Positions 12,001-14,693 of a stretch of 14,693 nucleotides of DNA are shown here, piece by piece (the stretch's first letter is position 1; the number at the start of each line of letters is the position of its first letter). Position numbers: made by a program. Origin of the DNA: a virus. Taxonomy: Duplodnaviria > Heunggongvirae > Uroviricota > Caudoviricetes. Location of the stretch: IMG/VR virus record IMGVR_UViG_2541047965_000006; one strand, written 5' to 3'.

Positions 12001-14693
12001 TTTTATAACCTCAATACGGGCACCAGAAATGGGCTGAAAAACTGCGCAAAAAAGTGCGCAAAAAACTGCGCAAATCGATCACAGAACCGAACACACAGAC
12101 CAGCAGGGCAAAGTCAGATATGACGCGGCTTTCAGGGGAAAAGACCACCGGAAAACTGCGCATTTTTTCCCAAAACGAAACGCAACAGCCGCGCAAAACG
12201 AAACCGATACGTGATGAGCGAAGAAGTGCGCAAAATTTCATTGCCAGAGTTAAGGATGAACCTGAAGGAGAAACCTACGAAATTTTCGTAGGTCAAAAAA
12301 ACGGCGCAGAAATAGATATTATAACAATGACCTACAAACAAGCCCTGCAAGTCATTGATTAAAATCAATTATCGCGAATCGCGAGAATTAGGTTTTGGCT
12401 ATCGCCCGTGCGGAGTAATCCTTGCGGGACGTGACATTGTCATCAAAACAGTGACACACAGGAGGGCCGATGAACGGGCGTTCACCAACAGGGAGCAACG
12501 CCAGAACGCGACCCCGTACCAGTGGAAGAAGCCGGAACGATTGCGGCGGTAACTTGCTGATATTCCCGATAACGCAAAATTGCGTTGGCCTCACCTACTC
12601 GCTCAGCAAAACCCCTTCTAAAGGTATTTTGTGGATAATCAATAAGATGCGTTGACTTGCTGCATTGCAAAAAGTTAAGCAGGAAGGCACGGCCTGTAAG
12701 ATGGGATGCTGTGTGATGATTCAGCCCACCAGCAACTATAACGATTCCCGTTACAGTTGATGTGCTTTTTTGCTGGTAAGGCGTAACCCGTTGATTGTTC
12801 CAGAATCCCCCATTGGGGGAAAAGCTGGCTACATCCCTCACTTCTGAGGACTGTTAACCAGCAGGCTGAAATATACTCACAAATTACGAAATTTTCGTAA
12901 ATTTAACTTTCATCCAGTACATCCCCGAATTACGGGTATGTAACCACAGCCATTACGAGGTGTTGTTGATGCGTGATATTCAGCAAGTGCTGGAACGCTG
13001 GGGAGCATGGGCGGCAAATAATCGTGAGGATGTGACCTGGTCATCGATTGCAGCCGGATTCAAGGGACTTATTCCATCAAAGGTAACCTCCCGTCCACAG
13101 TGCAGTGATGATGACGCGATGGTGATATGCGGGTGTATAGCCCGTCTTTACCGGAACAACCGCGATTTGCATGATTTGCTGGTTGATTACTACGTGCTGG
13201 GCATGACGTTTATGACACTGGCACGAAAGCATGGATGCTCAGATGGTTATATCGGGAAAAGGTTACAGAAGGCTGAGGGGGTTGTTGAAGGCATGTTGAT
13301 GATGCTGGATGTGAAGCTGGAGATGGATCGGTATGTTGAGCGGGAAGCGCTGATTTCGTAACGCACAGACAAAAAAAACCGCAGTCGGACCCTGCGGTGG
13401 AGAATAACGTCACAATCAGGTGTATGAAGAACAAGAAAAAACGTATTGCTCACAATTATGCCACGAGACAAAGTGCAGTGCACCCTGAACAGTGATAATC
13501 ACTACACAGACCAGCAGGGCACATGTGAATCATCATTACGGTGATCATGCCTCCCCCATCCCGAAACAGGGGACAGGGTTACGAAATTTTCGTAACCCCT
13601 CCACGGTTGCCCTTTAAGTGCAGGCGTATTTGCATAACGTCGTTAACCAGTCACCCACTGATCACGCTCAAACATACGCAGAAACGGGGCTAAATCGCAT
13701 TCTGGCGCAATATTTGTTGTAGGGGCTGGCATTCCACCGGAAAACGACTACAGGCTTACAGGCAGCTTAAAATTCGACAGGCGAATAACAGGGCGGGATC
13801 TGGAGGCCTGCACAAAAAGAGCAGGTTACTACCCGAAAAGTGTAGTGCCATATCGGGGCTAAAAAAAACCGCAGTGCGATAACACTACGGTATATGCCAC
13901 CAAAGAAACACAACAAGAGATCAGCAATGAGTAGTACCTGTAAGCCTTCGGGGTAATTGTAACACATGAGCAATCTTTTACTGGAAACGGTTTTTCACTG
14001 GACGCGATGCCGATATTGCAAATCAGCACAGAAAGGGGATGCCTGATACAATACCCTCACCCGATAAAATCCCACCGATAAACTCATCTGCCACGAGCAG
14101 AAAGAGCGAACGAACCCGATACGCAGTAATGCTTGTCGGGTTCAGCTTTTTAAGGCGGCTGTAGATGTCGTGCTCATCCACCAGCTTCATAGCGGATAAC
14201 CGGAAAAATTCCGGCTCATGGTTGTACATTTCTTCAGCAAATCATTTTAGCTATACGTTTGGTTATACGATTTCAAAATTCAATTAATCGATTTCTTTAA
14301 AATCATGTAGTTACACGCTTAATTAAACTCCTCTCGTGGACCAAAAATCCCAAGAAAACCAACCTATTGCGGTTGGTTTTTTTATATCTGCATTTAATTC
14401 GATAAACAGACCGCGACACATCACGGCCTGTTTATTTTCTGTTATCAGAACGTCCAGACCACACCCGCCTGAGTTGTGCTGCTTTCTTCACGGGAGAAAC
14501 GGCTGTCGATACCAAGCGTTAGCCCCGTCAATGTTTGCTCAAAGCCAGCGCCTGCATCAGTGGTCACGTTGTTGCGGCTGTTAATTGCCGAACTCCACAT
14601 CGCCGTATCGTAATTAACGCCTTTTACGCTACCAAGACGCCCACGCACGGTGTCCAGTTCTGCATCAAATACCAGCGGTTGTGCTGCCGCCAT

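Follow-up and report, generated by a model that had tools for sequence, protein, structure and literature searches.

Two candidate small RNA genes facing an orphan antiterminator gene at the right end of a satellite-like Escherichia coli island

Introduction

Do two terminator-like hairpins at the right end of a mobile island belong to small RNA (sRNA) genes, or do they only stop transcription that arrives from elsewhere? The question is raised by the IMG/VR virus record IMGVR_UViG_2541047965_000006, a stretch of 14,693 nucleotides (nt) assigned to the Caudoviricetes and referred to here as the window, which covers most of a satellite-like integrative island residing in an Escherichia coli-type chromosome. 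The last plus-strand gene of the island encodes the antiterminator Q, and two minus-strand units, each ending in one of the hairpins, are convergent with it. An initial annotation, made from the sequence alone, had placed both hairpins at the right end of the island, and this placement is confirmed, as they lie between Q and the host DNA. With moderate confidence, the right end is read here as carrying two independent, unannotated minus-strand genes for small non-coding RNAs, each predicted to begin at a sigma-70 promoter of the extended -10 type and to end at a strong Rho-independent terminator. The annotation had likewise proposed a pair of small RNAs. Conserved promoters and terminators, their fixed spacing and a peak of conservation over unit 2 speak for the pair, whereas the paralogy that had been attributed to it holds for 15 nt only and the suggested shared seeds are unsupported. 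The features on which the argument turns are as follows.

12960..13361, plus strand, antiterminator Q, Q21-type (Pfam PF06530, E=4e-52; PDB Q21, E=3e-9)
13371..13398, minus strand, intrinsic terminator of unit 1 (ACCGCAG, loop GGTCCGA, CTGCGGT, then T8)
13371..13450, minus strand, predicted sRNA1, ~80 nt, with the start placed at 13450-13448, 6-8 nt past the -10
13455..13463, minus strand, putative extended -10 of unit 1 from a motif scan, TGGCATAAT (TGgCATAAT)
13464..13860, between the units, variable spacer or cargo slot, with different small open reading frames (ORFs) or IS2 among islands
13861..13891, minus strand, intrinsic terminator of unit 2 (ACCGTAGTGT, loop TATC, GCACTGCGGT, then T8)
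13861..13949, minus strand, predicted sRNA2, ~89 nt, with the start placed at about 13949-13948
13892..13933, minus strand, conserved core of sRNA2, mostly unpaired in the consensus fold, (C/U)UACUCAUUGYUGA....CUUGUURUGUUUCUUUGGUGGC
13956..13964, minus strand, putative extended -10 of unit 2 from a motif scan, TGTTACAAT (TGtTACAAT)
14023..14229, minus strand, ORF of 68 amino acids (aa), probably a remnant of an rlfB-like gene, outside the sRNA unit

Terminators and their shared 3' arm

Both hairpins were ranked at the top of the terminator scan, with 7 pairs in terminator 1 and 10 pairs in terminator 2. On the minus strand, terminator 1 consists of A13398, CCGCAG (13397-13392), the loop GGTCCGA, CTGCGG (13384-13379) and T8 (13378-13371), and its T-run ends 9 nt past the stop codon of Q. 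Terminator 2 consists of A13891 followed by CCGTAGTG, the loop, CACTGCGG (13876-13869) and T8 (13868-13861). The initial description of two minus-strand hairpins ending in CTGCGGT plus T8 was accurate, positions included. The window contains exactly two copies of the 14-mer CTGCGGTTTTTTTT (CTGCGGT8), at 13371-13384 and at 13861-13874, and both are on the minus strand; the mean expectation over 200 shuffles was 0.03, and none of the 200 reached two copies.

Identity between the units is limited to the 15-nt ACTGCGGT8, which comprises the 3' arm of the terminator and the T-run. Outside these 15 nt, 371 of 1000 shuffles aligned as well as the two bodies, which ruled out paralogy of the RNA bodies and left the term paralogous, as first applied to the pair, to the 3' arm plus T-run. 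By the same test, a pyrimidine-rich stretch that had been described as shared upstream of the hairpins is at chance level, and U/C-rich stretches are unsupported as a shared seed feature. A chance similarity, by which a common GC-rich arm and a T-run recur in two unrelated terminators, would agree with the unrelated bodies and also with the terminator of GcvB, which has a TGCGGT-type arm that is parted from the T-run by GC. It would not account for an exact 14/15-mer seen twice where 0.03 is expected, nor for the co-occurrence of the pair in every fully sampled related island except one, L003 (pattern search, all retrieved loci). Coincidence is considered quite unlikely, and it concerns only the common origin and not the function of each unit. 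The 3' arm plus T-run is the single element that points to a common origin of both units.

Promoters and predicted transcripts

Only seven extended -10 motifs were found in the whole window on both strands, and each T8 terminator has one of them 77-95 nt upstream, an arrangement with a rough chance estimate of ~2e-4. The CATAAT -10 (13460-13455, minus strand) that had been suggested for unit 1 is present within the extended -10 TGGCATAAT, and the RNA of about 80 nt suggested with it agrees with the length predicted here. At the sequence level, both units combine a putative promoter of their own with a Rho-independent terminator at constant spacing, as expected of an Hfq-type sRNA gene, and they also have the 3' end of this type, with a U8 tail and with the U-rich UUUCUUUGG before the hairpin of sRNA2 and UUAUUCUCC before that of sRNA1. 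In the predicted folds, sRNA1 is a terminator hairpin with a weakly structured body, and the body of sRNA2 is also weakly structured, with a frequency of the minimum free energy structure of 0.07.

The ORFs that run across both units pass through the terminators and are frameshifted between variants by a 2-nt indel and by the length of the T-run, so that coding is unlikely; no conserved in-frame ORF was found across all unit variants. Small hydrophobic peptides like those of type I toxin loci might still be proposed as products of the units, a possible source being the 68-aa ORF with a TTG start at 13973..13767, as the ORF across unit 2 does translate as hydrophobic (LLIADLLLCFFGGIYRSVIALRFFLAP). 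The TTG ORF, however, begins upstream of the predicted transcription start and continues through the terminator, the indel and a run of 7-9 T shift its frame in the variants, and it has no Pfam match, which together make a peptide product scarcely credible.

Conservation of unit 2

The body of unit 2 is 89-92% identical to its E. coli relatives, compared with 72-80% for the flanks. Its core was kept in all variants and is mostly unpaired in the consensus fold, as a conserved seed of the Hfq type would be, and it holds two anti-start-codon-like CAU/UUG stretches. The core is a candidate for both a seed and a U-rich Hfq-type site. In one group of islands (group a) the extended -10 TGTTACAAT is conserved. 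In a second group (group b; L022-L024, L027, and L039) the DNA upstream of UUACUCAUUG is unrelated, so that the boundary of conservation coincides with the 5' edge of the core, and the replacement DNA again has an extended -10, TGATAAAAT (TGnTAAAAT), 5 nt nearer the core. The T-run varies from 7 to 9 T among variants. The stem differs among variants at just two positions, where G and A alternate opposite U; three of the four possible combinations occur, and pairing is intact in each. As there is no double compensatory change, the structural support for unit 2 is consistency and not covariation.

The initial annotation had seen no credible ORF upstream of either hairpin on the minus strand. This needs correction for unit 2, where the 68-aa ORF ends 130 nt upstream of the terminator on the same strand, though it is remnant-like and has no Pfam match. 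Unit 2 could then be the 3' untranslated region (UTR) and terminator of this ORF (14229..14023), or an sRNA derived from that 3' UTR. The position and strand of the ORF fit such an origin, and some third-position changes in its C-terminal part relative to L003 look synonymous. On the other side, the ORF and unit 2 are unlinked. Islands L001, L002, and L018-L024 have kept unit 2 and lack the ORF except for a 33-nt end segment, and L003 has the ORF remnant, broken by stop codons, and no unit 2. The ORF is in part rlfB-like, with 14082-14152 being ~85% identical to an internal part of rlfB of phages P1 and P7. About 100 nt of 14060-14160 are identical to L003, which matches the whole 14017-14214 stretch. 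A 3'-UTR origin of unit 2 is held to be very improbable.

Several further elements were observed in and around the ORF. An inverted repeat with 14-nt arms lies inside it at 14112-14143. A plus-strand extended -10, TGATACAAT (14044-14052), together with a promoter-like site (14043-14070), points outward from the island and is antisense to the ORF. The 33-nt segment (14175-14207) is 91-94% conserved at the right end of 10 of the 11 compared E. coli island loci, ~50 nt from unit 2, with 95-97% identity over 14178-14214 in three loci; it may be attR or a terminal recombination sequence.

Conservation of unit 1 and the cargo slot

Unit 1 evolves in the opposite way. In alignments of nine unit 1 loci the promoter block GTGGCATAATT was invariant in all nine, as were the short ACGTTTTT and the motif TTCTCC-CCGCAG...CTGCGG-T(6-8); the hairpin loop measured either 7 or 11 nt on a constant stem. 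In L002 the similarity is largely lost ~20 nt upstream of the -10. Measured in 25-nt steps, identity was 0.92 over the terminator, 0.36-0.60 over the body and 0.88 over the promoter, and in the central 35 nt of sRNA1 the window differs from all E. coli loci. A body that is 36-60% identical between the window and the E. coli loci does not have the conserved seed of an Hfq-type sRNA. In unit 1 the signals are conserved and the message is free to vary, and with a variable body in unit 1 and a conserved one in unit 2 the two probably have different jobs.

The space between the units is variable, with terminator 1 and terminator 2 lying 490 to 1760 nt apart across islands and with differing small ORFs or an insertion sequence (IS) between them, so that the units bracket what is, judged from the compared islands, a cargo slot at the right end. 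In L018 (239-1618) an IS2 lies within the body of unit 1 and separates the promoter from the terminator. In about half of the carrier genomes (O157:H7 lineages, O111:H8, and O103:H2 12009) the unit 1 match was shortened and split into two places. The spacer of the window also contains a perfect 11+11 palindrome, GGGTTACGAAA-T-TTTCGTAACCC (13576-13598), which is 92-96% conserved in related islands, where it is sometimes present in two copies. A third palindrome half-site, ATTTCGTAAC (13353-13362), overlaps the stop codon of Q. The spacer palindrome may be a protein-binding site.

The cargo slot brings in another explanation of the hairpins, namely that they are only terminators or insulators that keep minus-strand transcription, whether started in the cargo genes or beyond the island, out of the potentially toxic Q gene, in which case the -10 motifs would be incidental and no discrete RNA would be made. 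The terminators do flank the slot, and some islands have a minus-strand coding sequence between the units, upstream of terminator 1. The poorly conserved body of unit 1, its tolerance of the IS2 insertion and the lack of a good -35 at either promoter fit insulation as well. An insulator, however, has no need of an invariant TGnCATAAT block at a fixed distance from terminator 1, which persists in L002 although similarity there fades ~20 nt further upstream. Nor does it need a conserved 40-nt unpaired block before the hairpin of unit 2, a body that is more conserved than its flanks, or an extended -10 that is retained after the upstream DNA has been replaced. Insulation is possible, especially for unit 1, but for the locus as a whole it is judged unlikely. 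Two sRNA genes remain the preferred reading.

Distribution among islands and phages

Among 5426 complete E. coli genomes, 110 contain unit 2 and 113 contain unit 1 (each ~2%). The carriers are mostly Shiga toxin-producing E. coli (STEC) and include many O157:H7, O111:H8, O145, and O103:H2 strains. In these genomes no annotated feature overlaps unit 2, and unit 1 overlaps only with the end of the Q gene annotation. The island family occupies at least four sites in E. coli, including yicC/dinD, the tRNA-Gly gene beside the ETT2 (E. coli type III secretion system 2) remnant, clpS, and a site beside another integrase. Two related islands were retrieved in full, and in both the genes, ProQ/FINO and PerC among them, follow the same order. 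Exceptions to the paired occurrence of the units were L003, which lacks unit 2, L018, with unit 1 split by IS2, and a short metagenome fragment, L032, with unit 2 only.

Outside this family the units were hardly seen. Neither was found in ~90 lambdoid loci whose Q is 70-90% identical to the island Q. A Q-based search of genome contigs returned 12 loci without a downstream match to either unit, and most of these have the phage PR' box. Pattern scans of viral and metagenome contigs gave three true sRNA2 copies and nine other matches by chance. Phage and plasmid collections contained no copy of unit 1 and, apart from one possible ~71% match to unit 2 on a 1-Mb E. coli record (H120), only matches to the rlfB-like piece.

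Orphan Q and possible roles of the two RNAs

In nearly all of the ~90 lambdoid loci Q is followed by the box TTTACGWWCGTAAA, and in the examples that were read a plus-strand terminator follows the box. For Q21, a box plus terminator of this kind after Q has been described as the canonical PR' cassette (10.1101/651190). The box TTTACGWWCGTAAA was found nowhere in the island, and the terminator scan of the window gave no plus-strand terminator-like site after Q. Similarity between phages and the island ends at GCGCATAAAAAA, directly after the Q stop codon, with no other post-Q homology to the phage PR' region, so that the A-run that would template the U-tail of unit 1 is itself the junction. Judged by this context, the island Q is an orphan without a target in cis, and it may work in trans, at the PR' of a prophage that is either a helper or a resident (possibly Stx) one. 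A reason to restrain Q is the toxicity that Q-like proteins can show on over-expression (PMC4825925).

For sRNA1 a role in cis is most likely, as an OOP-like antisense or interference RNA for Q. This role is favoured because unit 1 is convergent with Q, ends 9 nt past its stop codon, would be complementary to read-through transcripts and has an unconserved body. Unit 1 does not overlap the coding sequence of Q, as an OOP-type RNA would, and overlap with the mRNA depends on read-through, which is to be expected as no plus-strand terminator-like site follows Q. The 3' end of a Q mRNA produced by read-through would be fully complementary to sRNA1. The unit 1 terminator would in addition keep antisense transcription that leaves the cargo slot from reaching Q. 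By contrast with unit 1, sRNA2 would most likely be a trans-acting, base-pairing sRNA of the Hfq type, because it combines a weakly structured body, a conserved unpaired core, a U-rich stretch and a U8 tail. Transcription from the predicted 5' ends, the use of a chaperone and pairing with targets are all proposed here on the evidence of sequence.

Several results weigh against two functional sRNA genes. No good -35 was found at either promoter, and a generic promoter scan listed neither. The folding z-scores of the units are modest (-2.1 and, for sRNA2, -2.4) and derive mainly from the terminators, and no compensatory double change was seen in either unit, the variants being too little diverged to display one. 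The conserved block of unit 2 reaches ~35-45 nt beyond its terminator, so conservation exceeds the RNA. The separation of promoter and terminator by IS2 suggests that unit 1 is dispensable, or that its loss is tolerated, where it is split. Predicted pairing to the dppA and oppA leaders was no better than that of shuffles, and the same was true of a duplex scan against 22 translation-start regions of the island, for which the energies looked inflated and only the comparison with shuffles was used. Finally, an Hfq cross-linking and analysis of cDNA (CRAC) list has no entry near yicC/dinD in strain Sakai. The absence of an EcOnc entry there is explained by Sakai having no island at that locus.

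In pathogenic E. coli, sRNAs gained by horizontal transfer rewire core regulation, and the strains Sakai, EDL933, and E2348/69 are the basis of most sRNA catalogues. If the reading is correct, two unannotated RNA genes are each carried by ~2% of the complete genomes of E. coli, chiefly those of STEC. Both would adjoin a Q that has lost its target promoter, on an element that also encodes virulence regulators of the PerC type and an RNA chaperone with a FinO domain. The locus offers a compact test both of the control of an orphan Q by a satellite-like island and of whether a mobile FinO-family protein brings its own RNA clients. Its interest would rise if a link to the orphan Q and to the island FinO-domain protein were demonstrated.

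Island setting and neighbouring genes

The remaining features of the island are listed from the left edge of the window.

Left window edge (cut there), plus strand, tyrosine integrase
Plus strand, Rha and Ash/Icd-like regulators
4256-4444, plus strand, C4- and IsrK-type RNAs (RF01695 and RF01394, Rfam covariance-model match)
Plus strand, DUF927 primase-helicase, SSB, and PerC genes
9178..9663, plus strand, ProQ/FinO-domain protein (Pfam PF04352, E=3.9e-20)

The FinO/ProQ-domain protein reported by the initial annotation is indeed encoded by the island; its best PDB match is FinO (1DVO, E=2.9e-12), with ProQ (5NB9) at E=3.8e-10, and a ProQ/FINO gene is annotated also in both of the related islands retrieved in full. 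Host DNA is back by ~14233; from there on, an E. coli autotransporter locus matches the window at 95-97% identity. On the host side of this junction, 14358-14385 (CCAACC-TATTGC-GGTTGG, flanked by A7 and T7) reads by eye as a bidirectional terminator, which the automatic scan did not list.

A 550-aa ORF (10347-11999, plus strand) has Phage_Tail_Tip and GpJ C-terminal receptor-binding domains. Its product is a tail-tip J-like protein on a satellite-like island and could redirect the host range of a helper phage. Further strong minus-strand terminator-like hairpins stand against the plus-strand gene flow at 1830-1854, 7876-7900, and 12042-12072, the last with an extended -10, TGTTATAAT, ~250 nt upstream (12318-12326, minus strand). 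Such hairpins could mark further antisense or small island transcripts.

Comparison with known small RNA systems

An Rfam search of 13200-14450, both at the gathering score and up to E<=10, returned only noise (C0465 with 19.6 bits, OrzO-P, ErsA, and BTnc201), and identity of the units with Esr41, AgvB, AsxR, STnc100/PasD, or IsrK was ruled out at this threshold. EcOnc19 and EcOnc61, from the CRAC list of enterohaemorrhagic E. coli (EHEC), were compared and are unrelated to the units. A literature search with the sRNA2 core sequence gave no match. The Pas sRNAs described in a preprint belong to lambdoid prophage loci with another Q family, PF03589 (10.64898/2026.05.13.724894).

An 11-nt stretch of the window's sRNA2, UUGUUGUGUUU, matches the G/U-rich R1 region of E. 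coli GcvB exactly. Measured against shuffles (50 of 2000 to 66 of 1000), this identity exceeds chance only marginally, and most E. coli variants read UUGUUAUGUUU. DapZ is a mimic of the R1 seed. For sRNA2 the possibility of a GcvB (RF00022) mimic was rejected, with no model match, a marginal and unconserved identity and pairing to dppA and oppA at the level of shuffles.

The C4 and IsrK RNAs, immunity RNAs of the P1, P4, and Gifsy type, are small RNAs of the same island but lie 9 kb from the units and on the plus strand. In Salmonella Gifsy-1, IsrK controls a Q-like antiterminator (PMC4825925). Membership of the units in either family was excluded, as the models match only at 4256-4444 and nowhere in 13200-14450.

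AgvB, AsxR, and the EcOnc family are convergent prophage sRNAs located downstream of Q and PR' in EHEC lambdoid prophages (Tree et al. 2014, PMC4104026). The units resemble them in being small, horizontally acquired and terminator-ended, in facing the transcript that leaves Q, in lying beside a cargo ('moron') slot and in occurring in STEC. Members of that family also have a conserved 3' part and differing 5' ends. Theirs is the nearest layout described so far, and the likeness does not extend to the family itself. There is no match to the AgvB and AsxR models (RF02702 and RF02703) at E<=10, and the units measure ~80 and 89 nt compared with 51-60 nt. AgvB and AsxR share a conserved 3' region of ~42 nt, whereas the two units share only 15 nt. 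The hosts differ too, being lambdoid prophages for AgvB and AsxR and a satellite-like island with an orphan Q for the units.

In phage lambda, OOP RNA is a 77-nt antisense RNA convergent with cII, and paQ is an antisense RNA of Q. Unit 1 is similar to these in its predicted size (~80 nt), in a putative promoter that lies immediately past a regulatory gene, in running towards that gene and in the intrinsic terminator at the 3' end of the gene. OOP overlaps the 3' end of the cII coding sequence, whereas a gap of 9 nt separates the end of unit 1 from the Q stop codon, so that its RNA could pair only with a read-through 3' UTR. Unit 1 has no sequence similarity to OOP or paQ.

FinP/FinO, Inc/FopA, and RocR/RocC are systems in which a FinO-domain chaperone of a mobile element has a cognate RNA, recognised by its terminator hairpin and 3' U-tail (PMC9977716). 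The island is like them in that a FinO-domain protein and small RNAs with a hairpin and U-tail are encoded on the same mobile element. Unlike the units, however, FinP and Inc are antisense to 5' leaders of genes for replication or transfer, and the weakly structured bodies and U-rich site of the units fit Hfq ligands better than FinO-type ones. A private pair of FinO-domain chaperone and RNA is conceivable, and the shared ACUGCGG-U8 arm is only suggestive of it. In a more speculative and improbable scheme, the ACUGCGG-U8 RNAs would be ligands of the island protein, and a self-contained, mobile chaperone-sRNA module would silence the orphan, potentially toxic Q until the satellite is induced, coupling the island, through the action of Q in trans on the PR' of resident lambdoid prophages, Stx prophages included, to the late-gene and toxin expression of a helper phage in STEC. 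Overall, the layout of the two units is ordinary for sRNA genes, and both candidate genes are uncatalogued and confined to one narrow island family in E. coli.

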